A DNA stretch of 64,000 nucleotides. Source: an uncultured Acidobacteriota bacterium (GTDB taxonomy: Bacteria > Acidobacteriota > UBA6911). The stretch lies in contig CAWEJX010000001.1 of NCBI GenBank assembly GCA_963809485.1, positions 352,001-416,000 on the forward strand, written 5' to 3'. The translations under genes and the position numbers were made by a program. Of the stretch, positions 22,801-48,727 are shown in pieces; positions within the stretch are counted from its first letter, which is position 1, and each line of letters opens with the position of its first letter. Under the pieces are notes generated by a model. That model was not told where the DNA came from. It ran no database searches and saw nothing but the letters and a program-made list of their open reading frames with translations.

Positions 22801-22919
22801 TTAGGTGCAATTCTCCCGAATATAGGGTCTACGCCGAATTGAAACCCGGCCTCCGGTCCTGCCTTGTGTCAATTCCTGGTTTGCTTCCTACTCTTGAAAA
22901 TTCCGCATCCTGGCAAGAG

Positions 22920-23840: not shown

Positions 23841-23965
23841 CCCCTTGCCCAATCTTCTGTGACCATGGGCGCTGCCGGAAGATTGGCCGCGCGGGAATTC
23901 GACCTATGCCCGCGCGCGGCGCCTCCGTCCGCCCTAAAGAAAACCCGGATCCGGCCTCCAATATA

Positions 23966-24673: not shown

Positions 24674-24683
24674 AACGAAATAT

Positions 24684-26137: not shown

Positions 26138-26140
26138 AAT

Positions 26141-27830: not shown

Positions 27831-27835
27831 AGGAT

Positions 27836-32149: not shown

Positions 32150-33739
32150 GTGCAACGAACGCTCCTTTCCATAGCTCTTCTTGCGGTAATTTCCCTCGGA
32201 ACCCTGTTTTTCCGGCTCGGATCCCTGCCATTGTCAGGCGCCGATGAACCCCGTTATGCCCGTATCGCGCAGGAAATGCACGATCAACAGCAATGGATTA
32301 CGCCGACACTCGAGGGAAAGCCCTGGCTAGAAAAACCTCCTCTTTATTATTGGATAACTATCCCTGCCTTTTCCCTAATCGACAGGATTGAGACCGCCGC
32401 GAGGATCGGGCCTGCCGTCTGTGCGCTGATATCCGCGATTGCTATCTTCTGGATAGGCTCTTTGCTCTGGAGCCGTCGAGCCGGCCTGCTGGGAGCCCTG
32501 ATTCTGCTTACCAGTCTAGGATTCGCGGGTTACGGCAGAAGCGCTTCCACCGACATGCCGTTTACGTGCTGCCTGACGGCCGCAATGGTGATCCTGGCCG
32601 CCGCGTCGGAGAGGGCTATCGGGAGAACGAAGGTGCTTTGGGCCTACGTTTTTCTGGGGCTGGCGGTGCTGGGAAAGGGCCCCGTAGCCATCATTCTGGC
32701 AGCGGGAATCATGCTCTGTTTCTGGCTCCTGGATGACCGAGGAATAGTCCTCGGGCGCTGGCACTTCTCTTCGGGGCTATTGATAACATTGGCGCTGGCG
32801 CTGCCGTGGTTCTGGATGGTTTTCCGGCAAAACGGTTACAGCTTTATCGCGACATTCTTTATCAATCACAATCTTGCCCGCTATGTGACGGACATTCATC
32901 ATCACTCGCAGCCCTTCTATTATTATCTGCCGGCCCTCCTGGCTCTCTCATTTCCCTGGAGCGGCTGGCTGGCAGTGCTGTTCCCCGTATCTCCGATAAA
33001 GGGCTTGCGGAGCTGGCGGCAATGGAATCCGGGGATGCTGTTTCTTACCTGCTGGCTGCTTTTTCCGTTGATCTTTTTTTCTCTTTCCGGCTCCAAACTC
33101 GCGGGCTATATCCTGCCCTGCCTGCCCCCTCTGGCTTTGATCCTGGGGGTGCGCCTCTCACAACTGATGGAGGAAGCCGCCGAATTCGCCCGGCTACGCG
33201 CCGCGATGATTCTATACCTGATATTTTGCTTAGGGATGGCCGTTGCTGCGCCCGTCTATTTTCACAAGGATTATGGCGGCCATTGGAGAACCGGGCTTGT
33301 GCTCTCGGCTGTGATAATGGTTCCCGCGGTATTCACGTTTGTATTCGGATTGAAAGGGCGATGGAGCCGGGCAATCGAAATTACGTTACTGCAAGGTCTG
33401 CTGGTCATCCTTGCCACGGCAGTTTTCGCCTTTCCGGTTCTCGCCGATTATCACTCGATGCGGGGCATTGCCGGCCGGGCACTGGAGCTGCTGCAGGCGG
33501 AAGAGCCGATCGTGACATACAGGTTCTTTCACCATACTCTCAATTACTACAGTGGGTACAGGATCGCCGGGAAACTGGATGATTTGAATGCCGCGCTTGT
33601 TTTCTCGCAGGAACACCCGCATTTCCTCGTAGTAACCGACAAGCGCAGCGTGCCGGAACTTGAGGCTTCCGCAAATTTCTCAATCACCTCCCTGGCGAGG
33701 CAAGGAAACACCCGTCTTCTGCGCATATCCCGAAGGTAA
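32150..33739 (+). CDS. ArnT/PMT-like (GT83/GT39) membrane glycosyltransferase
   Basis: DEPRYARIAQEM, EKPPLYYW, GLAVLGKGPVA, HHHSQPFYYY, SKLAGYILP; many TM helices. Confidence 0.88.
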   Translation: MQRTLLSIALLAVISLGTLFFRLGSLPLSGADEPRYARIAQEMHDQQQWITPTLEGKPWLEKPPLYYWITIPAFSLIDRIETAARIGPAVCALISAIAIFWIGSLLWSRRAGLLGALILLTSLGFAGYGRSASTDMPFTCCLTAAMVILAAASERAIGRTKVLWAYVFLGLAVLGKGPVAIILAAGIMLCFWLLDDRGIVLGRWHFSSGLLITLALALPWFWMVFRQNGYSFIATFFINHNLARYVTDIHHHSQPFYYYLPALLALSFPWSGWLAVLFPVSPIKGLRSWRQWNPGMLFLTCWLLFPLIFFSLSGSKLAGYILPCLPPLALILGVRLSQLMEEAAEFARLRAAMILYLIFCLGMAVAAPVYFHKDYGGHWRTGLVLSAVIMVPAVFTFVFGLKGRWSRAIEITLLQGLLVILATAVFAFPVLADYHSMRGIAGRALELLQAEEPIVTYRFFHHTLNYYSGYRIAGKLDDLNAALVFSQEHPHFLVVTDKRSVPELEASANFSITSLARQGNTRLLRISRR

Positions 33740-33837
33740 CCGCTTTATAGGTCTTATGCGGGCGGCTCTCCAGAACCATCCTTTACCCAAAAACGAAGAT
33801 TGGCGGCCTTACGGAGGAATTTGCACCTGACAGCCAT

Positions 33838-34311
33838 TTATCGAAAGGTGAAACCGATGGTGAATTTGATTTCGGGGCTGTCCAGGGCTCCCACCTTCAG
33901 CTCGCCGAATAGCCCGTCTTCGTGTTCAAGCCCGACTAGCAGATTAAAACCGCCGCCCGTGTCTGTCTCGCCGCCACGGTTGTGCGATTCGCCGAACCTG
34001 TATACAAGTAATGCGGGTCCGGCGCCCACGTAGGCAGAAAGATCCGATTTTGGAAGCGGGATCCGATATGCGAATTCGAGATTCGCCGCAATCGTGGTGA
34101 CGTGGCTCCCTATTCCGATTTCGAGATTCGGCCGGAAATCCAGGTTGCCGATCAATGGATCCGAAACGATGTGGCCACCTAAATGAAACTGGTTGGGATC
34201 CGCGGTTGCTCCGGCTCGAAGCCCAAATGCGGTTTCCGCCATGCCGGCGCCTGTGCCGAAGCATGTCAGCGCTACCAGAATTTGCACTGCCCAGCGAATT
34301 TTTTTTGGCAT
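33838..34311 (-). CDS. Small outer-membrane beta-barrel protein
   Basis: Signal peptide, alternating beta strands, YVGAGP, C-terminal KFTIGFTFR. Confidence 0.75.
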   Translation of the reverse strand: MPKKIRWAVQILVALTCFGTGAGMAETAFGLRAGATADPNQFHLGGHIVSDPLIGNLDFRPNLEIGIGSHVTTIAANLEFAYRIPLPKSDLSAYVGAGPALLVYRFGESHNRGGETDTGGGFNLLVGLEHEDGLFGELKVGALDSPEIKFTIGFTFR

Positions 34312-34400
34312 TCAGCTGATCTCCTGGAATGCATTTTTAGTGAAATCTGTGGTTGCTTTTTTATTCCAAAATATCCACCATTCCTGCTCAGGAGAAATGT

Positions 34401-35792
34401 ATGCTCAAACTGCACAATACCCTTACCGGAATCGAGGAGGAGTTTCATCCCCTGGAGGAAGGAGTGGTCCGCTTCTATACTTGCGGACCGACGGTTTACG
34501 ATTATGCCCACGTCGGGAACTTCAGGACTTTCGTGTTTCAGGATCTTCTGCGACGGTATCTAGTTTATTCCGGCTACCGGGTCATGCATGTGATGAATAT
34601 CACGGATGTGGATGACAAGACCATCCTGAACGCCCGAAAGGAAGGCATGACCCTGAAGGATTATACTATTAAGTATACCGAAGCTTTCCTCGAGGACAGC
34701 AAAACCCTCCGCATTGAGCCTGCGCAAATCATGCCCCGTGCGACCGACCACATACCCGAAATGGTTGCCCTTATCCGCAGGCTCGAGGAGAAGGGATATA
34801 CCTACCGGAAGGACGGGTCCGTCTATTTCAGCATCGCGCATTTCCCCGGCTACGGGAAACTCAGCAAAGCCGATTTCAGCGGCGCGCAGTCCGGCGCGCG
34901 TGTGGACGCGGACAAATACGACAAGGAAAACGCACGGGACTTTGTCCTGTGGAAAGCCCGGAAGGAGGGAGAAGATTCCTGGGAGACCGAAATCGGCCCG
35001 GGCCGGCCCGGCTGGCACATCGAGTGCTCGGCCATGAGCATGAAATATCTGGGCGAAACCTTCGACATCCACTGCGGCGGTGTGGATCTGGTTTTCCCGC
35101 ACCACGAAAACGAAATCGCCCAGAGCGAGTGCGCAACCGGAAAGCCATTTGTGCGCTACTGGGTGCATCCGGAATTCCTGATCGTCGAAGGGGAGAAGAT
35201 GTCGAAATCTCTGGGCAATTTTTACACCCTTCGCGACCTCCTGGCCCGCGGACATTCGCCTGAATCCATAAGGTATCTGCTCCTGTCGGTCCACTACCGG
35301 AAGCAGCTCAATTTCACGGCCGACGGATTGCATCAGGCCCAGGCATCGATTACGCGCCTGGCGGACTTCGTGCTGCGGGCAAAGGAGAAAGCCTCGCCCG
35401 AAAGGCCTTCCGCCGAATTTGCGGCCGAAGTTCAGTCCGCGCGGGAGCGCTTCAAGGAAGCAATGGACAATGACCTTAACACATCCGCGGCGCTGGCGGT
35501 GATCTTCGATTTTGTGCGTTCCGCAAACCAAAAGAACAGCCGGAATGCCTTCACAGGAGGCGATGCCCGCGCTGCGCTTGATTTTATAAAGGAAATAGAT
35601 GGCGTTTTCAGCATCCTTCCAGCGCAGCCCGAGTTGCTGGATGAGGAGATCGCCAGGCAGATTGAAGCCCGCCAGGCCGCGCGCCGCCGCAGGGATTTCG
35701 CAGAAGCCGACCGGATCCGGGACTGGCTTTTATCCCAAGGAATACAGCTGGAAGACACCCCGGGAGGCGTCCGCTGGAAAAGGCGCTCCTGA
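34401..35792 (+). CDS. cysS: Cysteine--tRNA ligase
   Basis: CGPTVYDYAHVGN, NITDVDDK, GRPGWHIECSAM, FPHHENE, KMSKSLGN. Confidence 0.98.
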   Translation: MLKLHNTLTGIEEEFHPLEEGVVRFYTCGPTVYDYAHVGNFRTFVFQDLLRRYLVYSGYRVMHVMNITDVDDKTILNARKEGMTLKDYTIKYTEAFLEDSKTLRIEPAQIMPRATDHIPEMVALIRRLEEKGYTYRKDGSVYFSIAHFPGYGKLSKADFSGAQSGARVDADKYDKENARDFVLWKARKEGEDSWETEIGPGRPGWHIECSAMSMKYLGETFDIHCGGVDLVFPHHENEIAQSECATGKPFVRYWVHPEFLIVEGEKMSKSLGNFYTLRDLLARGHSPESIRYLLLSVHYRKQLNFTADGLHQAQASITRLADFVLRAKEKASPERPSAEFAAEVQSARERFKEAMDNDLNTSAALAVIFDFVRSANQKNSRNAFTGGDARAALDFIKEIDGVFSILPAQPELLDEEIARQIEARQAARRRRDFAEADRIRDWLLSQGIQLEDTPGGVRWKRRS

Positions 35793-35836
35793 AAAATTCC
35801 CTGAAATGAAATGCTGCGACCGCAAACATTAACAAT

Positions 35837-36181
35837 ATGGCCGCGCCCCATTTGCTTAAGGGAAGGAAGGGAGAACGGATCGCTGCAATTTTTCTGCTCC
35901 GGCAGGGCTTCGACATCCTGGCGAGGCGCTACCGTGGCCGTTCCGGCGAATTGGATATCATCGCGTTCGAAAGCGACATGCTTGTGTTTGTGGAGGTTAA
36001 AACGCGCAGTTCCCGGGATTTCGGTGAGCCCTGGGAATTTGTTGACTGGCGGAAGCAGCAGATCCTGCGCCGCACGGCGGAGGAATTTATTGCAGATCAC
36101 GACATGGGCCAATACGCCTACCGCTTCGACATCGTCTCAGTGCTCGGCAAAAAAGTTGAGCTTTTCCGCAATGCCTTTTAG
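35837..36181 (+). CDS. yraN: YraN family (UPF0102) nuclease-like protein
   Basis: GRKGERIA, GELDIIA, LVFVEVKTR, RFDIVSV, NAF end. Confidence 0.9.
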   Translation: MAAPHLLKGRKGERIAAIFLLRQGFDILARRYRGRSGELDIIAFESDMLVFVEVKTRSSRDFGEPWEFVDWRKQQILRRTAEEFIADHDMGQYAYRFDIVSVLGKKVELFRNAF

Positions 36182-36279
36182 CCCTTGCAGATCGCCAGAT
36201 TCCACAAGATCTTCGGCAAAATCTGGGGTTGAGTTTTTCCCCCTGTTTGGATAATATCCTTCCGCTGCTTCGTACAAGG

Positions 36280-36354
<75 letters not shown>

Positions 36355-36390
36355 TCTAAAGCGGGTCCATTCCGGATACCGCTATCCATC

Positions 36391-36634: not shown

Positions 36635-36836
36635 TCGCTTGCGGACGCTCATCAAAAGACCATCGTTCGTCAGCATCCGCGGGCATTGCATCATCCTGGA
36701 GCGGGCAAACTCGGCGCGTCCCCCCCCAGGCAAAGATGGGAATTGCCGATGTATTTACCTGTACTGCAACCCGGGAAGCAGGAGCAGACCTGCCGGTCCT
36801 TGTTAGCATACATGCGAGGCGGGTTTTCCGATGAAG

Positions 36837-39275
36837 CTACTCCATCGTCCTCGGCGGGATGGCCGACAAAACCGAAAGGTTGTGCGTGCCGAACAATGAA
36901 AAGGAAGCAACCGGCAAGTCAGACGTCAGCCGCACATACCCGGAAGTCTGGTCTTTCCAGTTCAGCGAACCAAAGTATTGCGGCAGGAGCCGGGCCCTCT
37001 TGTTGCCGGCCGGAATGTACCGGAGCGTCTCCTCGACCATTTTCCCGTCGGCATCAAGAAGCTCCAGCGTTACCTTCGCCGCGCTGCTGTTTGGATTAAG
37101 GATCGCGATGCCGGTGAAAAAGAGGTCGTTGGATGCGACATGACTGAAAAGCATTGAAGTCTGCAACTCGGAGATCAGCGCCAGGGCGGAAGCAAAGGTC
37201 TGGCGATTTATGTCGCCGAAAACGGTGCTTCCGGCAAGCCTTATGCCGTCGCTGACCATTTCGACATACCCTGAAGTCATCTTTTCCAGATCAAGGCTCG
37301 CAAAGAACGATGGATCGTCGATTAAAAGCTTCCCATTGGCCGGGATGACGAGAGTCCGCGTCGATCCGATCTGCTTGCCGTCTTCGGCAAAGAATCTGAA
37401 CTGAACGGTTCCTTTTCTGGAATCCAGGTTGACCACCGAAAGGCTGGTCCTATATTGGCCGCCAAGCACATATTGGGGCGAGTAGAGTGTTGTGTTGACT
37501 CCGGCGGCATTCTGCCCTGCCAGCATGGAAATATCACCCTTTGCCTGCTGCAGAACCTGGAAGGACTGAACGCCCTGATCCGCACTGACGCGGACATAGT
37601 CGGTCGCCTTTGCTTCAAGACCGGCAAACAGGTCGTTGAACAGGTCCGCCGTCAACGCGCCGTTCTTTGCAATCACTCGTGATTCGGACCTGCGAACCGC
37701 TCCGTCGGCGCCCATCAGCTTCAAGGTGACGCTGACGTCTTCCACGTTTTTATTGGCTATATTGAGTCGGCTATGACCGTTCGCCTGGATCTCGGTGAAA
37801 ATAAGATCCGTCAGCGTGTCGTCCTCGATATTGGCGCCATCCATGTAGTTCAGGTCACTGTCGAAAATCATGAATAGGCCATCGATGCCGGACGTGTCCG
37901 TATCGAGGCGTATCCAGCCGTCCGAGTTCGTCACGGCGAGGCCGTCCCCGAATATTGTCGAATCGTGGATCGGCAGCTGGGCGCCCGGCTCGAGCTCGTA
38001 GGTTCGTGGATTGTAGATTTGCCATCCATGAGTGTAACACCCGTCGCTCTCAATGGCGGTAAAAGCGAGACTGGCTCGTTCCGAGTCCAGATTGGCGAGT
38101 GCCATGCCCATTATGCCTTCCGCATGGCGCGCGGATGCCATTGCCGATTCCTGAGCTTCCCCAGCTAAAGCAAAGCGCGGCAGGGCGAACGTAAACGATC
38201 CCTTCTCTGTCGTGCTGAAATTATATTCGGGAGATGCAGCCAGGTCTCCCTCGGAATCCATGGACTTCACTCGGAATCGATAAAGCGTATGCTTCTGCAG
38301 GCCTTTCAGTGCAATGGTGTGCCGTGTAACCATGTCGTCAAGAGCAGCCCCGCGGGCATCCGATCCTTCAATCCAATACTCAACCTCTGAATTCGCAGCC
38401 CTGTCTGTAGTCCAGGATATCGTTGCACTTCTGCTGGTAACATTGGAGACGGCCACATCGCTGATCTCCAGGCTGGAATTCTTTCCCTTCGTGGTAAAGG
38501 TGTAATCGCCGGAGGTAGCCAGGTTGCCGGCAGAATCTCTGGATTTGACCCTATAGTGGTACGGAGTGTCTTCCATCAATCCGCTGAGTGCCTGGGTATG
38601 AAACTTATCCAGGTTTGTGTCAATCTTTGTGCTTTTCCCGTAGCTGGTGGAGGCGCCGTACTCAATCTGAGCAGTCGATGCTTCATCCGTCATCCATGTG
38701 ATGATTACGCCGGTGCTGGTAGGATCGGAGCTAAGCACGGAGGATATTTGCGGCGGGAACGTGTCTCCCGCGGCCAGCACAGTGATATTTCCCGATGTCA
38801 TCGAGACCTGGACAGAGTTTGCGGCAGGATCCGATGCAACAACTCCCCCTGGTTTAAGGGATAATGACCCGGTATCTGCAGCTGCGGATACATTCATCTG
38901 GATATGAGCAATTGGCCCGGAACTCAGAGCATTCTGGTTGAAACCAAAGATAATAAGGCGGACGCCGCCGGAAATTGCATTGGCGTAAGCGAGTTTACCT
39001 GCCGACGAAGAGGCTGCACCTGTTGAGACGGAAACAAATGAAAGCGAAGGGGAAAATATCAGGTCAAATTGCAGCGTACAGACAGATGCCGAACCCGGAT
39101 TGAACTGCACGGGTATGATTACCGAAGATCCAGGCGATCCCGAAGCCGATCCTGCCGCCAGGATGGGTGATTGTGCCATTGCGTTGGCGCCCACGAGCGT
39201 CCCGAGCAGCATAAAGCAGAATGCAAAACGTATAAACTGACACGGGACGTTTTTTTGAGTCCGCCGGGGTATCAT
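36837..39275 (-). CDS. Secreted protein: cohesin-like domain + 2 FN3-like domains + four C-terminal beta-sandwich repeats
   Basis: AGGAG RBS; signal peptide; GSASGSPGSSVIIPV...LQFDLIFSPSL...SSGPIAHIQMNV...GNITV; ITWMTDEAST...YHYRVKSRD; ISWTTDRAANSEVEY...YRFRVKS. Confidence 0.8.
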   Translation of the reverse strand: MIPRRTQKNVPCQFIRFAFCFMLLGTLVGANAMAQSPILAAGSASGSPGSSVIIPVQFNPGSASVCTLQFDLIFSPSLSFVSVSTGAASSSAGKLAYANAISGGVRLIIFGFNQNALSSGPIAHIQMNVSAAADTGSLSLKPGGVVASDPAANSVQVSMTSGNITVLAAGDTFPPQISSVLSSDPTSTGVIITWMTDEASTAQIEYGASTSYGKSTKIDTNLDKFHTQALSGLMEDTPYHYRVKSRDSAGNLATSGDYTFTTKGKNSSLEISDVAVSNVTSRSATISWTTDRAANSEVEYWIEGSDARGAALDDMVTRHTIALKGLQKHTLYRFRVKSMDSEGDLAASPEYNFSTTEKGSFTFALPRFALAGEAQESAMASARHAEGIMGMALANLDSERASLAFTAIESDGCYTHGWQIYNPRTYELEPGAQLPIHDSTIFGDGLAVTNSDGWIRLDTDTSGIDGLFMIFDSDLNYMDGANIEDDTLTDLIFTEIQANGHSRLNIANKNVEDVSVTLKLMGADGAVRRSESRVIAKNGALTADLFNDLFAGLEAKATDYVRVSADQGVQSFQVLQQAKGDISMLAGQNAAGVNTTLYSPQYVLGGQYRTSLSVVNLDSRKGTVQFRFFAEDGKQIGSTRTLVIPANGKLLIDDPSFFASLDLEKMTSGYVEMVSDGIRLAGSTVFGDINRQTFASALALISELQTSMLFSHVASNDLFFTGIAILNPNSSAAKVTLELLDADGKMVEETLRYIPAGNKRARLLPQYFGSLNWKDQTSGYVRLTSDLPVASFSLFGTHNLSVLSAIPPRTME

Positions 39276-39350
39276 AGGAAACTCCTGAGTCCGGTATGGA
39301 TGGTGTTTGCACTAATTTCTTTGCGTCCAGTAGGCAACAAAGCGCCCTCG

Positions 39351-41480
39351 CTACTGAATGACCTGCGGTGGGACCGCGGACAGAATTGACAGGTTGTTTG
39401 TGCCGAAGAGCGAGAAGGAGGCGACCGGCTGATCCGATGTCAGCCGCACATAACCTGACGTCTGGCTGTTCTCCGAGAGATACCTGAACTGCTCAGACAA
39501 TAGCCGTGCCTTCTTTTGTCCCCGTGGGATCCGCTCTGTGACTGTCTCGATCCGCGTGCCGTCTTCTGCGAAAAGCTCCAGCGTGGCGTTCGCATCATTC
39601 GCCCCGGGATTCAGGATGGCGATGCCGGTAAAATAGAGGTCATCCGAGGCCACATGACTGAAGATCACCGATTTGTGAAGCTCGGAAATAAGCGCAAGCC
39701 CGGAAGAAAAGGAGCCGCCGTTCCTGTTACCAAACAGGGTACTTCCGGCCAGCCTGATGCCGTCGCTGATGATCTCGACATACCCTGCAACCATGTTTTC
39801 CGGATTGGCATCCAGAAAAAATTGCTGATCATCGATGTGCAGTTTCCCGCTGGCTGGGAGAATAAGGTACTGAGTTGCACCCAGCTGCCGTCCATCCTCG
39901 CCCATAAATCTGAGTTGCACAGTCCCTGCTCTGGAATCCAGGTTTATAAGAGAAAGGCTGGTACGGTACGCTCCGCCGATTACATACTGAGGTGAATAGA
40001 GGCTAGTCGATCCTGCACTAAGGTCCTGTCCTGCAAGGACGGTAATATCCCCTGCTTCCTGTTGCATTATCAGGAATGGATGCAATCCTTGGGTCGCCCT
40101 CACCCTGACATAATCGCCGGCACCAGGCTCGGTTCGGGAGAAAAGGTCGTCAAACAGATCTGCCGTCAAAGCTCCGTTGGCTGCAATCACGCTCGAAACA
40201 GAATCGCGGACAGATCCGTCGTCCTTTATCAGGCTCAGCATTGCAAAGGCTTCCGAAGGACTATTATTCGCGATGCTGACTCTGTTATGTCCTTCCTTCT
40301 GGATCTCGACAAAAGCAAAATCCGTCATCCGGCCGCCCGAAAAGTTGGCTCCGTCCATGAAGCCGAGATCGCTGTCGAACACGAGGAAAAAACCATAAAT
40401 ATCCGACCTTGCACTCGCCAGCTTGATCCAGCCCCCGTAATCTGCAGGGAGATAACCCTTTCCAAAGACCTCCCGGTCCAATACCGCCAGTTGTGATCCC
40501 GGACTCAGTCCCTGGACTCTGGGATTCGTCACACCCTGTCCTTCAGTCAGATCTCCGGTGCCTTCAAGCGATGTGAATGTGACCGTAGCCGGCTCGACAG
40601 CCAGGTTGGCAAGAGCCATACCGGTCATGACTTCATCTTTCGAAGCTTCCTGGAAACCTCCGAAAGTCAACCTCGGCAAAACGAGTTCAGATAGTCCATT
40701 CTCAGAAGTATTGAAACTGAATCCGCTGGCGACCGCCTGGTTGCCGTCCGAATCGGAGGATTTCACGCGGAAGTAATAGGTGGTTCGCGTTTTCAGTCGG
40801 TTGAGTTCCAAGGCGTGATCCGTCTCAAGCCTGCTGAGGATCGCCCTCCGGGAAGCAGATTCAGCAGTCCAGTACTCGACTTCCGAATTGGAAAGTATGT
40901 TGGTTTTCCAGGATATTTTGGCGCTTGTGCCGGTAACGCCGGAAACGCTTACCGTGCTGATAAAGGGTGGAAAAGCACCAGTGCGAGAAAAAACCATTAC
41001 ATTGCCCGGGATCCCGGAAATGTTGACTGCATTCGCCAAGGTATCGGAGGCAACGACTCCGGCGATGACAACAGGAAGCAAACCGGCCGGAGCATTTGTG
41101 GAGATATTCAGCTGTACCTCGGCGATTGTTCCTGCGCCGATGGCGCTATCGTTCGATCCAAAAACCAGAATTCGGGCTCTGCCTGAAAATGAATTGGCCT
41201 TCACCGACTTGCCTGCCGATCTGGCCGCGGTTCCCGTCGAAGCTGAGACACATGAAAGCGCCGGAGAAAACATAAGGTCAAACTGCATAGTGCTTATGGA
41301 GGCAGTGCCCGGATCGAATTCAACCGGAATGCTGACTATATTGCCTGTCAGGCTGGAAGCGTCGCCAACGGCAATAGATCCAGACTGCTCTGTGGCGCCG
41401 GCGGCACAAAACGTCCCTGGCAGAACGCATAAAGACACCAGTATCAGGCACGAAATTGCGCAGGCACGCCGGAAGGTCAT
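39351..41480 (-). CDS. Secreted protein: cohesin-like domain + 1 FN3-like domain + four C-terminal beta-sandwich repeats (paralog of 36837-39275)
   Basis: ATGA overlap with upstream stop; GDASSLTGNIVSIPV...MQFDLMFSPAL...GAGTIAEVQLNI; shared LYSPQYV.GG.YRTSLS, FSHVAS.DL.FTGIAILNP, TSGYVRLTSD.PVASFSLFGT. Confidence 0.8.
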   Translation of the reverse strand: MTFRRACAISCLILVSLCVLPGTFCAAGATEQSGSIAVGDASSLTGNIVSIPVEFDPGTASISTMQFDLMFSPALSCVSASTGTAARSAGKSVKANSFSGRARILVFGSNDSAIGAGTIAEVQLNISTNAPAGLLPVVIAGVVASDTLANAVNISGIPGNVMVFSRTGAFPPFISTVSVSGVTGTSAKISWKTNILSNSEVEYWTAESASRRAILSRLETDHALELNRLKTRTTYYFRVKSSDSDGNQAVASGFSFNTSENGLSELVLPRLTFGGFQEASKDEVMTGMALANLAVEPATVTFTSLEGTGDLTEGQGVTNPRVQGLSPGSQLAVLDREVFGKGYLPADYGGWIKLASARSDIYGFFLVFDSDLGFMDGANFSGGRMTDFAFVEIQKEGHNRVSIANNSPSEAFAMLSLIKDDGSVRDSVSSVIAANGALTADLFDDLFSRTEPGAGDYVRVRATQGLHPFLIMQQEAGDITVLAGQDLSAGSTSLYSPQYVIGGAYRTSLSLINLDSRAGTVQLRFMGEDGRQLGATQYLILPASGKLHIDDQQFFLDANPENMVAGYVEIISDGIRLAGSTLFGNRNGGSFSSGLALISELHKSVIFSHVASDDLYFTGIAILNPGANDANATLELFAEDGTRIETVTERIPRGQKKARLLSEQFRYLSENSQTSGYVRLTSDQPVASFSLFGTNNLSILSAVPPQVIQ

Positions 41481-41986
41481 GGACAACTCCTGACGCCAAG
41501 GACAACATTGTTCAATATCTGAAGATCCAGCACATCCACCCTGCTGTCCTGGTTCAGGTCGTAACTTGCGGAGGAGACGTTTATGCCAAGGATTACGTTT
41601 GCAAGTGCCTGCAAATCGAGGGCATCGATGGATGAATCGCCATTGATGTTGCAGGTAACCGAGGAGGTCCCGATAGTCCGGGAAATTTCATTGGAAAAAT
41701 CACTTTCATTCCCATCGACATCGATGGCTGTGACCGCGAAATAATAGGTCCCGCCGCTCAGTTTCGGGACCAGGTATGTAGTCTGGTTTCCGATCAGAAT
41801 CGGAGCGCCGTAAGTCCCAGAGGTCGTGCCAACATAAACCTTGTAGCCTGCGATATTTGTAGAAACACTCGGATCCCACACTAGTGGAACATCGGCAGCC
41901 CAGGCTCCTGCGCAACTGCATATCACGACCAAGATGGCCAATAAAGTTATCGGGAAGGAACGGAAGCATAATCGCCAGGTCGACAT
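41477..41986 (-). CDS. Secreted FN3 + dockerin-domain protein
   Basis: Signal peptide ending AWA; FN3 (LVWDPS...AGYKVYVGTTSGTY...YYFAVTAIDVDGNESDFSNE); duplicated Ca-loop NINGDSSIDALDLQALANVILG / DLNQDSRVDVLDLQILNNVVLG. Confidence 0.85.
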   Translation of the reverse strand: MSTWRLCFRSFPITLLAILVVICSCAGAWAADVPLVWDPSVSTNIAGYKVYVGTTSGTYGAPILIGNQTTYLVPKLSGGTYYFAVTAIDVDGNESDFSNEISRTIGTSSVTCNINGDSSIDALDLQALANVILGINVSSASYDLNQDSRVDVLDLQILNNVVLGVRSCP

Positions 41987-42214
41987 AGTCTTTCTCCGGA
42001 TCTATGCCCTGAAGTATCGGCAACTTGTCGAAAAATCCGGTGACCTCCGTCACCAAAGCTTCCATTTGGCGGGGAGCCTGCAAAATCTGTGTTATTGTTG
42101 GAATGCGAATTATGCTAGGATGCGGCCTGGAACATGAGGCAGGCACAAATAGCCTGACAGGGAAACGACAGGTGAGGGATTTCCCTGGCAGGAATATTTT
42201 GCCTGCCTTTATTT

Positions 42215-43594
42215 TTAGGATCCCTTTTTCACCAGGACGGTCTTGATTGTCTCGAGGATAATAAGGGCGTCCAGAACCCAAGACATATTCTTGATGTAGA
42301 AAAGATCGTACTGCAGTTTTTCCACGGTGTGATCCAGCGTATTGGCATACCCGTAGTTGATTTGGGCCCATCCGGTGATTCCAGGCTTTACGACGTGGCG
42401 CAGCGGGTAAAAGGGTATTGATTCAGCAAGCTGTTGAACAAAGTGAGGACGTTCCGGCCTGGGACCAACGAGGCTCATATCTCCGCGCAAAACGTTGAAG
42501 AACTGCGGCAGTTCATCCAACCGCGTCCGGCGCATTATTTTGCCAAGGCGTGTGACTCGGCTATCCCCTTCCGCGGACCATACGGGACCGGTCTCTGCTT
42601 CGGCGTCTTCACGCATGGAACGAAATTTCACCAGCCAGAAGGTTTTCCCGTCCTGTCCTACGCGCTCCTGTCTATAGAATATCGGTCCTTTGGAATCCAG
42701 CTTGATCAGAACCATCAGGAGAAGAATAACGGGAGATAAAACCAGTAAAAGGACCGAGGATATTGCAACCGATAACACCCGCTTTTGAAAAAAAATGCGC
42801 TTGGAAACCGCAAATCCCTGGTTGAAGACCATCCAGCTGGGCTTCAGGTTTTCGATCGGAATTTTTCCAGCCACGCGTTCATAGAAGGCGGTTGCATCTT
42901 CGATGGCAATACCCCGGGTTTTGTATTCGAGAAGTTCTTTTATGGGCAGCTTCCCTCTGCGATCCTGCAATCCGACGACAATTCGATCCACCTTGTGATT
43001 CTCAACCAGTTTCGGCAGCTCTTCGTAGACTCCGACCACGCTTGGATTCACAATGGATTGCCCGACAAGCTTCGGATTGTCACCCACAAAGCCGACAACC
43101 CTTATGCCCAACTCGGGGTGCCTCAAAATCTCTCTTACGGCCTCGCGGGCGAGAGTGCCGGTTCCGAGCACCAGCAGGTTGGTGTGTGGAGCGCGACGGT
43201 CCCAATAGACGCGCAGGACAGAATGCCAGATCACAAGGAAGGCGCAGCTAAGCACCAGGCTGATTCCGAAAACTCCGCGGCCGATCATAACGCTCGGCGC
43301 TATGAAATAGAGAACACATAAGACCACGGTTGCCATAAACAGCGCCTGACAGAGGCGGAGGATATATTCCTTTGAAGAACGCGTTCTGCGGGACCCGTAT
43401 ATGTCGTTCAGGTGGAGCGAAAGCTGGAAAATTGCGGCGACCAATATTGCTTTTAGCAGCATGTGGTCGCCATTGCTTGAAGCCAGGGGGGATTCGCTCA
43501 GGCGGAGAAGATAGGCAGCCAAGACGCACCCTACCAAAAGCAGGGTTTCGACGAAGACCGCGCCGAATTTCCGCAACGCAAGATACCGCCACAT
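42215..43594 (-). CDS. Priming polyprenyl-phosphate sugar transferase, PEP-CTERM/exosortase A-associated type
   Basis: N-terminal TMs, Rossmann-like middle domain, FYERVAGKIP, KFRSM, RLDELPQFFNVLRGDMSLVGPRPERP, VKPGITGWAQI, EKLQYDLFYIKN. Confidence 0.92.
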   Translation of the reverse strand: MWRYLALRKFGAVFVETLLLVGCVLAAYLLRLSESPLASSNGDHMLLKAILVAAIFQLSLHLNDIYGSRRTRSSKEYILRLCQALFMATVVLCVLYFIAPSVMIGRGVFGISLVLSCAFLVIWHSVLRVYWDRRAPHTNLLVLGTGTLAREAVREILRHPELGIRVVGFVGDNPKLVGQSIVNPSVVGVYEELPKLVENHKVDRIVVGLQDRRGKLPIKELLEYKTRGIAIEDATAFYERVAGKIPIENLKPSWMVFNQGFAVSKRIFFQKRVLSVAISSVLLLVLSPVILLLMVLIKLDSKGPIFYRQERVGQDGKTFWLVKFRSMREDAEAETGPVWSAEGDSRVTRLGKIMRRTRLDELPQFFNVLRGDMSLVGPRPERPHFVQQLAESIPFYPLRHVVKPGITGWAQINYGYANTLDHTVEKLQYDLFYIKNMSWVLDALIILETIKTVLVKKGS

Positions 43595-43775
43595 GAACCT
43601 GTGCCCTCACTTCCACTGCAGCTTCAGTCTAACAGTTCATCGACAAGATGAAGGGAATCATTGATTAAAAAATGATTCGCCCGGTTAATTTTCTGAACTA
43701 GCGAAAAACATTAGGTTTAAGAATCAAGGAATGTTCGCGATCCCTTGGCGCCTAAGGCTGGGTGAGGGCCCACTT

Positions 43776-43859: not shown

Positions 43860-44435
43860 GTGAATTTGGGATCAAGCCTGGCTCAATCCGTATATAACTA
43901 TCTCGACATCGGGAAATCACCGCGCCCTGCCGACTGCATTTACGTTCTCTCGGGCAATCAGGAACGAAATGCCTATGGCACCAAAATGTGGAGATACGGC
44001 TACTCGAGGCAGCTCATACTATGCGTCGGCAGGTCCGAGTTACCCAATTTTACGCAACTTAGGCTCGAAACAGACAGTGAGCCGGAACCCTTGTTGAAGC
44101 GGATGTCGGCTGCAGGAGATCATTTTCTGATTCGTAGAGATCGCCAGCAGACTTCCTATGCCCCGGCTCGAATGGGGCGATTGAAGATCCGTTCTGAGAC
44201 CCGCGCTTTGGCTGAGTACCTCAGCGATATACCCGTGCGATCTCTCCTCGTAGTCTCTTCACCCATCCACATGCGACGCGTGGCGCTATCCTTCCGGCGT
44301 GCCTTCCGAAAAGCCGGCGTGCATCTGGCTTTTGTAGCCGTGCCGGAAAATCCCTCGCTGTCTTCCCCTTCCATCCGGGCTGAAATCTGGATGGAGTTCG
44401 GGAAATATATTCTTTCTCGAGCCTTTTTACTCTGA
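43860..44435 (+). CDS. YdcF/ElyC (DUF218) family protein
   Basis: ADCIYVLSG..ER and SLLVVSSPIHMRRVALSF motifs. Confidence 0.75.
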   Translation: MNLGSSLAQSVYNYLDIGKSPRPADCIYVLSGNQERNAYGTKMWRYGYSRQLILCVGRSELPNFTQLRLETDSEPEPLLKRMSAAGDHFLIRRDRQQTSYAPARMGRLKIRSETRALAEYLSDIPVRSLLVVSSPIHMRRVALSFRRAFRKAGVHLAFVAVPENPSLSSPSIRAEIWMEFGKYILSRAFLL

Positions 44436-44614: not shown

Positions 44615-47600
44615 TTACAGTTTGGCCAATGTCGAACGGGCTTCATCGGCTCCGGAGAAGTTCGGGCTCAGGCGCAAAGCTTCCGAAAGTGAAGCCCTGG
44701 CGTTCGCTTTGTCGCCAGCTTTGAAATAACTCATCCCGAGATGATAGTGGAACACAGGATTTTTCGAATCCAGACGGACGCTCTCTTTGAGAGTCTGAAT
44801 CGCAGACTGGAAGGATCCTTGACGGTAATAAACCCAGCCAAGCGTATCCGTAACACTTGCCGAACCAGGCAGCTTTCTTTTGGCAATTCTTGCCAGACTT
44901 AATGCTTCGTTCAGGTCGCCGCCTGTTTCGGCCAGCAGCCAGGACAGATTATTCGCGGCCACCGTGAACTGCGGATCAATTTTTAAAGCTTCCCTGTAGC
45001 TCTCTATCGCCTTGGTTTTGTTCTTCTGCAATTCATAAATCGCGCCGAGTAATGCCCAGCTTTGAGAGGATTCCGGGTTGAGTTTGATAGCGTTATCCAA
45101 TTCCCTGATGGCCTGGTCTGCGGAATTTTGCATCCCGTATAGTTGCCCAAGGAGCTGATAGGTGCTCAGGTTGCTGCTATCGAGAGACAGCGCCTTGCGA
45201 TAGGACTGTTCGGCATTTGTATAATCGCTTCGGCTGGCATAAATCCGTCCCTGAATCTCGTAAAGCTTTGCATTCTTAGGAGATTTCTCAATCTGCTGGT
45301 TGACAAGCTGGAGAGCTTTTTCGGGATTCTTTCGAGCCAGGGCAATCTCCGCAAGGGCTGTCACCGGTTCCGCGTCACCCGGATTTGCTTTGACTGCCTC
45401 GTTCAGCAATTCCTCGGCTTTGGCAGTATTTCCCAAGCCATAATAGGCAAGCCCCAGGCGGTTGAGTGCCAAGGAATCCCCGGGCTTGACTTTCAGATAC
45501 GCTTCATAAGCATCTACCGCTCCTCTGTAATTTCGCTGGGCGTCGTAGGCGGCTCCCAGGCTCAGGCGTGCATCGGAAGAATTCGGATTTACTCGAAGGG
45601 CTTGTTGTGCGAAGCGAATAGCAGAAGCATAGTCACCGCTGTCATACTTGAGCCGGCTCAGTGCAATGTGGGCGATAGCCATCCGTGGATCCAATTCCAC
45701 AGCCCTGTTCCACGCCTCTTCGACCTTTGCAGATTTCGGATCCTTAAGGTATAGGGCCTGACCCAAGACAAAGTGGGCGGAGGCCAACTTGGGATTGATG
45801 CCTATGGCGGCCTGCGCCTCCTCTATGGCAGCATCGGCGCTTCCCTTCCCACGAAGCAGATCGCTCTTGATGATGTGCGCTTCGGTGTCATTTGGAGTCC
45901 TTTTCAGGATTTCATCAATGACCTTTATTCCTTTATCCCAGGATTTCTGGCGGAGGTACTGGATTGCCAGTTGTTTGTTGTAGGAAACATTGCCAGGTTC
46001 CCTTTGTGCCAGGCTTTGCAGAAGATCGGTGCTCTTTTCAGGCTTTCCCGTCCGCGAATAAAAGCCTGCCAGCGCGGAAGCAACCGCCGGATTCTTCGGA
46101 TCGGCCTGAACCGCTTTTTTATAGAGGTCCTCTGCGCGGACCAGGTCTTTCCGGGATTCAGAAATTTCAGCCTGCAGGCGCAGAATGGGCGCCTGGGCCG
46201 CACCGTTTGTACGTGCCATTTGCTGATTCAACCGTTGAACAGCCTTGTCCGGCTTACCCTGCCGCATATAAAGAGCCGTGATTCCCGAGAGGGCATCAAC
46301 AGAAGACGTATCAGTTTTAAGGGCAGCTTCAAATTGCGCTTCCGCCCGAGGCAAATCGCCGGCCGTCAAATATGCGGCCCCCAACCGCTCTTGTCCACGT
46401 GCATCCGCAGGATTACGCTGAACGTATGCTTCCAATTCCGGGATTGCAGCTCCTGTATTGCCCTTTTGCATATGCGCCGCGCCCAGGATCAAATGCGCTT
46501 CGGTACGGTTCGGGGCAATCGTCAATGCCTGCTGGGCATAACGAATCGCGTTGTCCGCATCTCCTGCCTCGAGCTTCAGCTGTGCCAGAGCCAACACAGG
46601 CTGTACGAAGCGGCCTGGATTCCGGGCGGCCTCGGTCCACTCCTTTTCCGCTGACTGCCGATCCCCGGACTGGAGATACGCCATTCCCAGAAAGTGCCGT
46701 GCCTGGACCGAATCGGGATCTGCATCTGCAGCGGACTTGAATTGCTTCAGCGCATCAGCATATTTGCTCTGCGCATACAGGATTCTGCCTTTAAGCACCA
46801 GCGCGTCCATGTTCTTGGGATCACTTTTGAGAATTACGTCGGCTATTTCTTCAGCTTTGCCGTAAGCCTTCTGATTAATATAGGAATCGGCTAGCCTTTC
46901 TTTCAGTTTTTCATCGTCAGGATTCTCTTTCACAAGCCCTTCAAGCACCTCGGCGCTCTTGTCGGCCTTTCCGATCAAACTGTAAAAATTGCTCAGCGCC
47001 TGGCGTGCGGCCGAGTTTTTCGGGTCGACGGAAACTGCCTTCATATAGGCTTGTTCAGCCTTAACGGGATCGTTCATCCTCAAATAGGCTTGCCCGAGGA
47101 CCTCGTATAGCTGAACCTGTTTCGGATTCTGCTCTATGGCCCGGTTGATGCGATCCAAAGCCTTTTGCGGATTCTTCTGAGACATATAGAGGCCTGCGAG
47201 CGAAGCAAGGGCATCGAAGTATTGCGGATTGGCTTTTAGAGCAGTCTCGAACTGGGCTTCAGCCTGCCTGGCAGCGCCCTGGGTCATGTAAACCATGCCA
47301 AGCCTGTGATGGCCTGCCGCGCTCTCAGGATTGCGCTGCACGAACTCCTCGAGCTCTCTTGCTGCTCCCTGGTAATCCTTGTTGTTCGCCAGGGCGATTC
47401 CCAGAACCAGCCTCGCCTCGCGGGCATTGGCATCGATTGCCAACGCCTGTTTGGCGAGTGATGCGGCGGTCTGTGAATCGCCGGCATTCAACCTCAGCTG
47501 AGCGAGTGCGATGTAAGCCTGTGTCAGGGTGGCGTCATAGCGTAAAGCCTGAATCAGCTCCTGCTCCGCCTTTTGCTGGTCCTCATTCAATAGCAGTGCG

Positions 47601-48727
47601 AAGCCCAAGAAATAGTGGGACTGGCCTCTCGTGGGCAGGGCTTTGACGGCCGCTTCCAGCTTTGTCACGGCGTCCGGAATCCTTTTCTGTGCCAGCGCAA
47701 TCCTGCCCTGGATCAGAAAAGCATCACCGTCCTTGGGATTGATCTTAAGGATCTTTTCGGCCAGCTGGCTCGCTTTGTCCAGTTCATTGCGGGAAATGTA
47801 GATTCCTGCCAAACGCTTGAGGGGCAACGGATCCGAGGCATTGTCGGAAGCAAGCTTCCTATAGGCTTCCATGGCGCGTTCTGTCTGTCCGGTCCCGGCC
47901 AAAAAATCCGCAAGCACGATTTTGTGGATGATTTCATTCGGATAGATATCACACAGCTTGGCGTAGACAGCTTCAGCCTCGGAAAGTCTCTTGTTTTGCA
48001 TCAAAAAATAGCCAAGCGCATTGTACGCGCTGCGGGATTTTGGATCCGCTGCAATGGCGCTTTGGTAGAGCTGTTCCGCTTCCTGGGGACGCTGCGAGAG
48101 GGAGTAGTAATTGGAAAGGGCAATCCTCGGCTCGACGGAATCGGGGGCGACCTCAATAGCATGCCTGTAAGCTTCCTCTGCCAGCTCCGGCTGACGCACG
48201 GTTTCCCCAGGATCGGACAGCTTGAGAAAGGCAGGCATAAAACGCGGCTCAGGCTGAAGACCTTGCCGCATCTCCCCTATGGATTCGTCGAGCTGGATCA
48301 TGCGCGCGTAAGTGTTGCCGAGGAGTATTTGCGCATGGACATTGCTGGAATCGCGCCTCAAAATCAATTCAGCCTTGCCCCGGGCATCGTCGAACTTCCT
48401 TTCCATGAGCAGGATGTTGGCAAGCCTTAGCTGGGCGGACAGATTGTTGGGATCGAGCTGAATGGTTTTCATCAGGGTCCCGTACGCATCGCTGAATTGC
48501 CCCACACAAAGTTGCCCGAGCGAAAGCTTATAGTGCGCTTCCGGGAGATTTGGAGCAGCCTTTACGGCGTTCCGAAATTCAATCATCGCCTCTTTGTACT
48601 TTCCCTGAGACAAGTACTTTTCCCCGTTGCTTATGTACTTTTGGGGATTCTTGGAACAACCGGCAATCGATAGCATAAAGACAGCCAGGACAAGCCAGCC
48701 GGCACGGAATCGAAATGAGCTAGGCAT
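44615..48727 (-). CDS. Giant TPR lipoprotein, PrsT-like
   Basis: Lipobox IAGC; EAMIEFRNA; continuous TPRs; C-terminal AANNLSWLL...DTLGWVYY...YHLGMSY; exosortase context. Confidence 0.85.
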   Translation of the reverse strand: MPSSFRFRAGWLVLAVFMLSIAGCSKNPQKYISNGEKYLSQGKYKEAMIEFRNAVKAAPNLPEAHYKLSLGQLCVGQFSDAYGTLMKTIQLDPNNLSAQLRLANILLMERKFDDARGKAELILRRDSSNVHAQILLGNTYARMIQLDESIGEMRQGLQPEPRFMPAFLKLSDPGETVRQPELAEEAYRHAIEVAPDSVEPRIALSNYYSLSQRPQEAEQLYQSAIAADPKSRSAYNALGYFLMQNKRLSEAEAVYAKLCDIYPNEIIHKIVLADFLAGTGQTERAMEAYRKLASDNASDPLPLKRLAGIYISRNELDKASQLAEKILKINPKDGDAFLIQGRIALAQKRIPDAVTKLEAAVKALPTRGQSHYFLGFALLLNEDQQKAEQELIQALRYDATLTQAYIALAQLRLNAGDSQTAASLAKQALAIDANAREARLVLGIALANNKDYQGAARELEEFVQRNPESAAGHHRLGMVYMTQGAARQAEAQFETALKANPQYFDALASLAGLYMSQKNPQKALDRINRAIEQNPKQVQLYEVLGQAYLRMNDPVKAEQAYMKAVSVDPKNSAARQALSNFYSLIGKADKSAEVLEGLVKENPDDEKLKERLADSYINQKAYGKAEEIADVILKSDPKNMDALVLKGRILYAQSKYADALKQFKSAADADPDSVQARHFLGMAYLQSGDRQSAEKEWTEAARNPGRFVQPVLALAQLKLEAGDADNAIRYAQQALTIAPNRTEAHLILGAAHMQKGNTGAAIPELEAYVQRNPADARGQERLGAAYLTAGDLPRAEAQFEAALKTDTSSVDALSGITALYMRQGKPDKAVQRLNQQMARTNGAAQAPILRLQAEISESRKDLVRAEDLYKKAVQADPKNPAVASALAGFYSRTGKPEKSTDLLQSLAQREPGNVSYNKQLAIQYLRQKSWDKGIKVIDEILKRTPNDTEAHIIKSDLLRGKGSADAAIEEAQAAIGINPKLASAHFVLGQALYLKDPKSAKVEEAWNRAVELDPRMAIAHIALSRLKYDSGDYASAIRFAQQALRVNPNSSDARLSLGAAYDAQRNYRGAVDAYEAYLKVKPGDSLALNRLGLAYYGLGNTAKAEELLNEAVKANPGDAEPVTALAEIALARKNPEKALQLVNQQIEKSPKNAKLYEIQGRIYASRSDYTNAEQSYRKALSLDSSNLSTYQLLGQLYGMQNSADQAIRELDNAIKLNPESSQSWALLGAIYELQKNKTKAIESYREALKIDPQFTVAANNLSWLLAETGGDLNEALSLARIAKRKLPGSASVTDTLGWVYYRQGSFQSAIQTLKESVRLDSKNPVFHYHLGMSYFKAGDKANARASLSEALRLSPNFSGADEARSTLAKL

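Follow-up and report, generated by a model that had tools for sequence, protein, structure and literature searches.

The described systems that come closest to the locus analysed here are cohesin-dockerin pairs and PEP-CTERM matrix proteins. The locus is a trio of genes in a 64-kb stretch of DNA (called the window below) from an uncultured Acidobacteriota bacterium, encoding one protein with a fibronectin type III (FN3) domain and a dockerin (P0001) and two proteins that each begin with a cohesin (P0002, cohesin protein A; P0003, cohesin protein B). Type I cohesin-dockerin pairs are found in cellulosomes, for example in Clostridium cellulolyticum (2vn5/2vn6) and C. acetobutylicum (6kgc). Anchoring scaffoldins of the SdbA and OlpA type in Clostridium thermocellum carry a single cohesin and a C-terminal S-layer homology (SLH) anchor, and in C. 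perfringens cohesin and dockerin modules link glycoside-hydrolase toxins. That such pairs also occur outside cellulosomes is already known in general terms (PMC5244752). PEP-CTERM matrix proteins such as PepA in Aquincola are secreted, non-enzymatic and encoded beside prsK, prsR, prsT, xrtA and exopolysaccharide (EPS) genes; Aquincola requires both prsT and a PEP-CTERM protein to form flocs, the protein shifts EPS from the soluble to the bound state, and PepA-type proteins are proposed to hold EPS to cells (PMC9850573).

With the cellulosomal pairs, the trio shares the Pfam families and the duplicated Ca-loop dockerin. The two dockerin halves (LDLQxLANxILG and LDLQILNNVxLG) are nearly symmetrical, as in dockerins with a dual binding mode, and the modelled cohesin of P0002 superposes on cellulosomal cohesins at a TM-score (TM) of about 0.8. 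Unlike those pairs, the trio comes from a diderm Acidobacteriota host, its dockerin is bracketed by invariant cysteines and sits on an FN3 domain rather than on an enzyme, each cohesin protein has one cohesin and no carbohydrate-binding module (CBM), SLH or sortase anchor, and the genes lie in an EPS/exosortase locus. In their N-terminal cohesin, spacers and a C-terminal module common to many other surface proteins, P0002 and P0003 resemble SdbA and OlpA, but their C-terminal module is made up of four macroglobulin (MG)/Ig-like sandwiches with no SLH likeness and belongs to a diderm envelope. The Archaeoglobus fulgidus cohesin (2xdh), which is likewise found outside cellulose degradation, matches the P0002 model, as does the cohesin-FN3 double module of C. 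perfringens GH84 (2w1n; TM 0.47 over 245 columns), and the C. perfringens dockerin 2jnk (2jnk/2ozn) is matched by the P0001 family profile; in contrast to C. perfringens, there is no enzyme in the trio and the pair takes the place of the covalent bond that would hold a single modular protein together. Like PepA-type proteins, the trio proteins are non-enzymatic, appear to be secreted and are encoded beside prsK, prsR, prsT, xrtA and EPS genes, but they lack a PEP-CTERM tail and would assemble by cohesin-dockerin pairing.

We consider it fairly probable, judging from domain content and gene context, that the trio encodes a two-part, Ca-dependent, non-enzymatic extracellular surface or matrix protein that is made together with the XrtA/PEP-CTERM EPS; the Aquincola floc proteins may serve as a functional analogy. 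Three features appear to be new, namely a cohesin-dockerin clasp that would join the parts of an EPS-locus protein in a diderm, the change between split and fused forms that has taken place repeatedly, and a family of C-terminal modules that has no annotation so far. In a literature search that left subscription journals and supplements outside its scope, we found no paper that links cohesins or dockerins to PEP-CTERM/exosortase loci or describes this family. Going by titles and the opening of abstracts, papers on dockerins and cohesins in Acidobacteria are carbohydrate-active enzyme (CAZyme), metagenome or genome surveys, and those listed for noncellulosomal cohesin-dockerin pairs deal with cellulosomes, designer cellulosomes and engineered display; going by titles, none of those on dockerins and Solibacter concerns a trio-like system.

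Domains of the FN3-dockerin and cohesin proteins

A preliminary description of this DNA, made from the sequence alone, had proposed three co-oriented genes for secreted proteins, and these were recovered on the minus strand where it had placed them (Table 1). Its account of the first product as a 169-amino-acid (aa) FN3 protein with a duplicated-loop dockerin and two cysteines agrees with our scans: Dockerin_1 (PF00404) matches residues 114-162 of P0001 at 33.2 bits (Pfam cut-off 22.9), and the loops NINGDSSIDALD and DLNQDSRVDVLD are present in the translation, flanked by C112 and C168. The Pfam fn3 match to residues 33-102 scores 21.1 bits, under the cut-off of 25; the A1 profile matched FN3 structures in the Protein Data Bank (PDB) at an E-value of 2e-11. 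This FN3 "head" is the first domain after the signal peptide and is conserved in the 77 related loci described below. P0001 has 275 homologues, nearly all of 163-173 aa. A profile built from 39 family members matched the PDB dockerins 1daq (8.8e-7) and 2vn5_B (8.8e-6), and also 2mte and 2jnk. In these 39 sequences the donor positions 1, 3, 5, 9 and 12 of the two Ca loops are D/N, N, D, N/D and D (loop 1: N/D, N, D, D/N, D; loop 2: D, N, D, D, D), with positions 3 and 12 invariant in all 39. The dockerin thus appears to consist of two tandem Ca-loop segments, as in type I dockerins.

C112 and C168 are likewise invariant (39/39), and because they also bracket the fold, a disulfide between them that clamps the dockerin is probable and the simpler reading of the protein's end. 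The dockerin proteins end in this conserved Cys followed by one or two residues (...RSCP in P0001). CAAX-like processing of the ...SCP end by a neighbouring TIGR03008 protease was also weighed, and we deemed the disulfide simpler on sequence grounds. Two further readings of P0001 were rejected. First, the residue before a lipoprotein Cys is expected to be G, A or S, and in this family L, V or I precedes the conserved Cys of the signal peptide and an AxA site follows, which argues against a lipoprotein. Second, the name "predicted phage tail protein" that is attached to some relatives by JGI is based on FN3 only, and the gene context is one of EPS synthesis.

The two other genes had been proposed to be paralogs that each open with one cohesin. 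Cohesin (PF00963) matches residues 38-149 of P0002 at 32.2 bits and residues 42-166 of P0003 at 38.8 bits (cut-off 24.1), so that the profile search suggested in the preliminary description placed every dockerin and cohesin call above its Pfam cut-off. Behind the cohesin, Pfam finds fn3 in P0002 (25.0 bits) and two fn3/Pur_ac_phosph_N stretches in P0003; the Pur_ac_phosph_N match concerns the FN3-like N-terminal domain of that enzyme and not its catalytic part. In a phmmer search of the PDB, the P0003 cohesin matched the C. cellulolyticum scaffoldin cohesin 2vn5_A (3.8e-4) and 1g1k_A (8e-4), and the matches of whole P0003 to PDB sequences were confined to its cohesin and FN3 domains. The AlphaFold2 (AF2) model of full-length P0002 has a mean pLDDT of 88.9 and a pTM of 0.82. 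Its N-terminal domain does not have a generic Ig or CBM fold: Foldseek aligned it to six solved cohesins (6kgc_A, 5nrm_A, 2xdh, 1g1k_A, 2vn5_C and 2vn6_A) with target-normalised TM of 0.76-0.83 (6kgc_A 0.83, 2xdh 0.80, 2vn5_C 0.79) and a root-mean-square deviation (rmsd) of 2.4-3.4 A. Based on the Pfam and PDB sequence matches and the modelled fold of the P0002 cohesin, these modules are a true dockerin and true cohesins.

P0002 and P0003 are paralogues, with an identity of 53% across FN3 and the C-terminal part and of 43% from the signal peptide through the cohesin to FN3. The ATGA overlap for which translational coupling of the dockerin gene and the first cohesin gene had been claimed can be read directly from the DNA: the P0001 stop and the P0002 start share it, with AGGAG just before it, and the P0002 start is likely to be this ATG (41480) rather than the TTG at 41486. 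P0003 starts 75 bases beyond P0002 and has a GGAG of its own. No catalytic family was matched in the trio by Pfam or NCBIfam, as the preliminary description had also held. All three proteins have a hydrophobic N-terminal segment (in P0001 followed by AWA/AD) and an acidic mature isoelectric point (4.05 in P0001), and none has a hydrophobic helix after residue 45. P0002 ends in ...PPQVIQ and P0003 in ...PPRTME. Because the PEP-CTERM tail (PEP motif, membrane helix and basic cluster) is missing, the trio proteins are not exosortase substrates; a crude pattern for such tails matched no open reading frame (ORF) in the window.

Co-occurrence of dockerin and cohesin and their split and fused forms

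One genome per species was scanned, which gave 77 loci related to P0001. Full-length matches among them were restricted to metagenome-assembled genomes (MAGs) of Acidobacteriota/Terriglobia, and the remaining loci (Nitrospirota, Thermodesulfobacteriota and others) have the FN3 head only in common with P0001. Family hidden Markov models (HMMs) for the head, the dockerin, the cohesin and the C-terminal module were then applied to all ORFs of 80 aa or longer from the 77 loci and the window. Eighteen dockerin ORFs were found, of which one belongs to the window and 17 to 16 of the loci, and each is followed by a cohesin ORF on the same strand (18/18), directly adjacent in 17 cases and separated by one gene in the other (L008); the cohesin ORFs of L011 and L014 are short fragments. 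No cohesin was found in the 61 loci that lack a dockerin. The gene coupled to the cohesin gene encodes an FN3-head dockerin protein in 18/18 cases and never an enzyme, and stop/start overlaps like that of the window are also present in L001, L003, L005, L006, L009 and L015.

Many Acidobacteriota (L013, L017, L018, L032, L036, L037 and L055) instead encode a signal peptide, an FN3 head, an FN3 array and the four-repeat module in one chain, with neither dockerin nor cohesin, and by the family HMMs L005, L008 and L009 have such a one-chain protein as a second gene; Pfam scans of L013, L017, L018, L032, L036 and the one-chain gene of L008 likewise found neither module. The clearest comparison is between L018 and L003: residues 1-103 of the 967-aa L018 protein are 67% identical to the FN3-dockerin protein of L003, and from the first FN3 to the end it is 77% identical (588/763 positions) to the L003 cohesin protein. 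Because the single chain of L018 corresponds to the two proteins of L003, the dockerin and cohesin take the place of a covalent link. Intermediate forms exist as well: L027 has an FN3 array ending in a dockerin, and L031 a single chain of head, dockerin, FN3 and module followed by a cohesin gene.

An IQ-TREE phylogeny was made of 26 C-terminal modules that covered at least 330 of 444 profile positions, with partial spans and those of more than 560 residues dropped. Cohesin-headed and head-fused forms are intermixed in this tree (L018 with L003, 100/99; L013 with L006, 98/96); the form label has to change 8 times, and supported branches force at least 5 of these changes, with the bootstrap not fully settled. 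Each window paralogue groups with its orthologue in L001 (100/100), and the duplication that gave rise to P0002 and P0003 therefore predates the split between the window and L001.

Pairing of the dockerin with the cohesin is strongly implied by this perfect co-occurrence and by the natural single-chain versions, and the equivalence of split and fused forms is the strongest argument that the two modules bind and thereby rebuild the one-chain protein. We also considered that the two modules are not binding partners, and that the trio consists of independent secreted beta-sandwich proteins that have only their regulation in common. Such a reading would fit the Mantel test described below, which gave no co-evolution signal, and the wide distribution of unassigned non-cellulosomal cohesin and dockerin modules (PMC5244752). 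It is nevertheless improbable, given the co-occurrence (18/18 against 0/61), the conserved stop/start overlap, the conserved Ca-loop residues and the position of the modules exactly where relatives have a covalent link.

The C-terminal four-repeat module

The C-terminal module of P0002 and P0003 is about 440 aa long and is composed of four homologous MG/Ig-like beta-sandwich repeats of about 110 aa each. For protein A, hhalign related the repeats to one another with a probability of 91-98.5% in five of six pairs and 36% in the sixth, and AF2 modelled the module alone as a compact all-beta structure (pLDDT 92.3, pTM 0.90). A profile of the module family had no match to PDB sequences at E<=10. 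Pfam places DUF5719 (PF18986), a family without known function, on residues 489-639 of P0003 with a score of 26.2 bits, which equals the cut-off, and over profile positions 160-304 of 319; P0002 has no DUF5719 match. Atlas searches led to unnamed clusters of Acidobacteriota and Chloroflexota, with DUF5719 as the nearest named family (0.95 and 0.94), and no paper in the literature searched names DUF5719.

Foldseek found only generic MG/Ig sandwich arrays for the module (C5, C3, TEP1, A2ML1, PrgB, PitA and Bap). Because the best of these are the MG-domain arrays of C5, C3, TEP1 and A2ML1, with E-values down to 8e-9 for the module and 2.7e-10 for the full model, the module could be read as a protease trap or shield of the alpha-2-macroglobulin/complement kind and not as an anchor. 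We regard this as very improbable: the alignments have a TM of 0.09-0.17 and an rmsd above 18 A, which is generic sandwich-array likeness, there are only four domains, no Pfam or NCBIfam match to a macroglobulin, thioester or bait domain was found, and the genes lie in an EPS context.

HMMER searches with the module family found 2841 representative proteins at E<=1e-3 and 332 at E<=1e-30. Among the best 150 of the 2841 representatives (370-2400 residues long), the match reaches the protein end in most. Pfam was run on 33 of these 150, and the passengers in front of the module included a subtilase with BACON and TIG domains, BACON/PPC, a C-type lectin, TIG domains, InlB B-repeats, leucine-rich repeats with FN3, a beta-propeller protein, many FN3 arrays and one cohesin. 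Because one shared C-terminal module sits behind interchangeable passengers, the module is likely to be an anchoring or targeting (matrix-binding) end.

These passengers, and the dockerin itself, bear on another explanation, in which P0002 and P0003 act as anchoring scaffoldins, each with a single cohesin, in a general display system for any protein with this dockerin subtype, including enzymes from elsewhere in the genome, and the FN3-dockerin protein is only one cargo or a filler. The dockerin region was found in 14 longer proteins, namely 5 reprolysin-like Zn metalloproteases of 434-463 aa (P0350 and P0352-P0355), 2 GSDH-type proteins, 3 with FN3 and BACON and 4 FN3 arrays. The metalloproteases come from other Acidobacteria, and the three that were examined (P0350, P0352 and P0354) have the same Cys bracket and a ...CP end. 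A cohesin joined to a C-terminal anchoring module is, moreover, the plan of anchoring scaffoldins, and the module follows very varied passengers. Nonetheless we judge this explanation unlikely. The cohesin-coupled gene is the FN3-head dockerin gene throughout (18/18), in the fused relatives it is precisely this head that is linked to precisely this stalk, and Pfam and NCBIfam scans found no dockerin in the 64-kb window besides P0001. Two of the terms used in the preliminary description need to be narrowed accordingly. "Enzyme-free" holds for the window, but the same dockerin subtype ends metalloproteases in other Acidobacteria; an architecture "unlike a cellulosome" is right in that there is one cohesin per protein and no CBM or glycoside hydrolase in the trio, but a single-cohesin anchoring scaffoldin is resembled.

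The EPS/exosortase locus

The trio lies directly downstream of, and co-oriented with, a priming sugar transferase, as had been noted, and this gene is specifically the XrtA/PEP-CTERM type TIGR03013 (Table 1). The XrtA/PEP-CTERM locus set (exosortase A, EpsI, PrsK, PrsR, PrsT and TIGR03013) is complete in the window, with all members above their cut-offs. The linkage is conserved: among 10 loci, the window included, in which 5 kb or more of sequence precede the dockerin gene, 8 have XrtA-specific markers, and a ninth (L009) has general EPS genes. A TIGR03013 gene adjoins the dockerin gene in the window, L001, L006, L007 and L010, and the fused form of L013 is directly downstream of one; the five relatives' TIGR03013 genes that were scanned, L013 included, score 463-494 bits against the cut-off of 393. 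In other loci the neighbour is the Rce1-like CPBP protease TIGR03008 (pepcterm_CAAX), with 148-163 bits in L004 and L005 against a cut-off of 81. The DUF218-like gene that is divergent from the transferase has the same position in L001, L006 and L013.

Table 1. Positions of the trio, its domains and neighbouring genes in the window, and marker genes near dockerin genes of related loci
Feature	Position	Strand	Details
P0003, cohesin protein B	36837-39275	minus	812 aa; signal peptide, cohesin, two FN3, four-repeat C-terminal module
C-terminal module of protein B, residues 376-812	36840-38150	minus	53% identical to that of protein A
Cohesin of protein B, residues 39-168	38772-39161	minus	Pfam; phmmer
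P0002, cohesin protein A	39351-41486 (TTG) or from ATG 41480	minus	711 aa (TTG) or 709 aa (ATG); signal peptide, cohesin, one FN3, four-repeat C-terminal module
C-terminal module of protein A	39354-40685	minus	repeats 268-375, 376-490, 491-600, 601-711
Cohesin of protein A, residues 36-168 (TTG numbering)	40983-41381	minus	Pfam; AF2 pLDDT ~90
P0001, FN3-dockerin head gene	41477-41986	minus	169 aa; signal peptide, FN3, Cys-bracketed type I dockerin
Dockerin, C112-C168, two Ca-loop repeats	41483-41653	minus	Dockerin_1 33.2 bits; PDB dockerins matched
FN3 head domain, residues 31-106	41669-41896	minus	fn3 below cut-off; profile match to FN3 structures
Hairpin and T-run, possible terminator/attenuator	42036-42057	minus	between transferase and dockerin genes; weak
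XrtA/PEP-CTERM priming glycosyltransferase	42215-43594	minus	TIGR03013, 482.5 bits, cut-off 393 (NCBIfam)
DUF218-like gene	43860-44435	plus	divergent from transferase; DUF218 (Pfam) 26.8 bits, below cut-off 27.6
prsT	44615-48727	minus	TIGR02917, 610 bits
epsI	48853-49515	minus	TIGR02914, 104 bits
Exosortase	49560-50408	minus	TIGR03109 (XrtA), 214.7 bits, cut-off 208
prsR	50437-51840	minus	TIGR02915, 575 bits
prsK	51862-53958	minus	TIGR02916, 326 bits
L001, L006, L007			TIGR03013 upstream of dockerin gene
L010			TIGR03013 divergent from dockerin gene
L004	9010-9714		TIGR03008 pepcterm_CAAX directly upstream of dockerin gene
L005	9134-9793		TIGR03008 pepcterm_CAAX directly upstream of dockerin gene
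L008	4651-5304		TIGR03008 pepcterm_CAAX one gene further upstream of dockerin gene
L005			additionally prsK-prsR-xrt-epsI-prsT upstream
L001, L004			additionally XrtA-system deacetylase TIGR03006

The exosortase is a short form of 282 aa, and EpsI is encoded by a gene of its own. The exosortase clears the XrtA cut-off by a small margin, and its raw bit scores are higher to the fused XrtD and XrtW models, yet under their cut-offs. PrsT has 1370 aa compared with 899 model positions and matches in six stretches, an expanded TPR array. On the opposite strand beyond prsK, and divergent from it, are the stp1 and stp2 glycosyltransferase genes, followed by three FemAB-like acyltransferase (Acetyltransf_6) paralogues, a GNAT gene and a polysaccharide deacetylase gene (57865-63735), which is typical XrtA-locus content.

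Downstream of the cohesin genes in L005, L008, L009 and L010, and absent from the window, is a block with genes for a TPR protein, a protein of unknown function and an ABC transporter. The transporter gene is of the ATPase type in L005, L008 and L010 and of the permease type in L009; the protein of unknown function has about 270 aa in L005, L008 and L010 and is weakly GldF-like in L005, and the L010 gene at the TPR position has no Pfam match. In Nitrospirota, genes for FN3-head proteins are often beside prsK, prsR or prsT. The C-termini of their FN3-head/FN3-array proteins (L016, L019, L023, L026, L034 and L045) have the form GGGCGM..PPGPG.. followed by a hydrophobic helix and a basic tail, which is not a PEP motif and is named by no NCBIfam or Pfam model. 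Possibly this is an unnamed sorting signal of the Cys type; it resembles the Cys-bearing class of sorting signals reported by Haft (10.1101/2023.06.07.544157).

Proposed assembly and its implications

We propose that all three proteins would be exported by their Sec signal peptides and that the FN3-dockerin head would dock via Ca with the cohesin at the N-terminus of one or the other stalk paralogue. This non-covalent joint would rebuild the chain of FN3 head, FN3 domains and four repeats that is a single polypeptide in related Acidobacteria. The FN3 head would form the distal end and the four-sandwich end would probably be attached to polymer or envelope, and the assembled protein would probably tie polymer to the cell or cross-link the matrix. 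The translational coupling would fit an equimolar supply of the head and the first stalk (P0002). The preliminary description had expected a structural, Ca-dependent surface or matrix assembly of a floc, biofilm or S-layer-like kind. Binding, Ca dependence and a structural matrix role continue to be suggested by the present analysis. The trio does not form a multi-component scaffold; it is most likely a 1:1 joint that rebuilds a protein made as one chain in relatives.

Several observations weigh against this proposal. First, the module has no specific structural relative at the Foldseek TM values given above, and its anchoring role is deduced solely from its position and its varied passengers. 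Second, a Mantel test of dockerin against cohesin distances for 16 pairs (L011 and L014, with fragmentary cohesins, were left out) gave an r of 0.19 that was reached in 288 of 2000 permutations. Third, the same dockerin subtype is found on enzymes elsewhere. Fourth, P0001, P0002 and P0003 have no PEP-CTERM tail and no membrane anchor, and there is no evident route for their passage across, or attachment to, the outer membrane. Fifth, the linkage has exceptions: L009 has only a Wzc-like tyrosine kinase and GT2 and no XrtA markers, and in L014 the dockerin gene is an orphan between transposases with a cohesin fragment only. Finally, synteny is the sole argument for co-regulation of the trio with the EPS genes, because no sigma-54 site lies near the trio and a hairpin intervenes.

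Non-cellulosomal cohesins and dockerins are common in genomes and have almost no assigned roles, and for these the trio offers a concrete and testable function as a joint, backed by comparative evidence of unusual strength (the strict co-occurrence, the coupled genes and the one-chain equivalents found in nature). Acidobacteria rank with the most abundant bacteria in soil, and both the EPS they make and the way they aggregate influence how soil is structured and how it retains carbon. To have one protein of this matrix defined would provide a useful handle. The large unannotated family of C-terminal modules may be a general anchoring device, and for protein display a small Cys-clamped dockerin and the matching diderm cohesin could provide an orthogonal pair. 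A wider hypothesis, offered tentatively, is that the module is an undescribed and widespread anchoring or matrix-targeting domain of diderms and that Acidobacteriota have repeatedly inserted and removed a cohesin-dockerin clasp before it. If so, a one-chain matrix protein would have been turned into a plug-in display with exchangeable heads (FN3, BACON or metalloprotease) on an EPS-linked stalk, and a cellulosome-like principle would have evolved for the extracellular matrix of soil bacteria.

Expression signals, divergence and wider gene content

Co-transcription of the trio with the transferase gene is uncertain because a hairpin with a T-run (Table 1) lies between them; the numbers of promoter and terminator sites in the region are not above those in shuffled sequence. 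The best sigma-70-like site for the transferase gene is at 43804-43776. A sigma-54 search (TGGCACG-N4-TTGCW, up to 2 mismatches) gave 7 matches compared with 11.3 expected, none of them near the trio.

The closest public relative, a contig of an uncultured Acidobacteriota MAG (L001), is collinear with the window from the DUF218 gene to cysS. DNA identity is 64-79% in the region of the trio and transferase (36824-43646) and 91% in the tRNA/cysS block (33407-36356); protein identity is 93% for CysS, 81% for the transferase, 69% for the dockerin protein and 62% for cohesin protein A. The faster divergence of the trio would be consistent with fast-evolving exposed proteins. At the junction of cysS and the gene for cohesin protein B, L001 has an extra gene with a CBM96 domain. 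In the window, a tRNA-Gly(GCC) gene (36280-36354, plus strand), the sole Rfam/ARAGORN match, separates the cysS unit from the P0003 gene, which converges on it. Farther away, 12793-29652 is a duplicated Pho regulon region with two pst clusters, two phoU genes, two phoB-like regulators, a phoR/pnpS kinase, a SpoIIE-type phosphatase and a Porin_5 gene.

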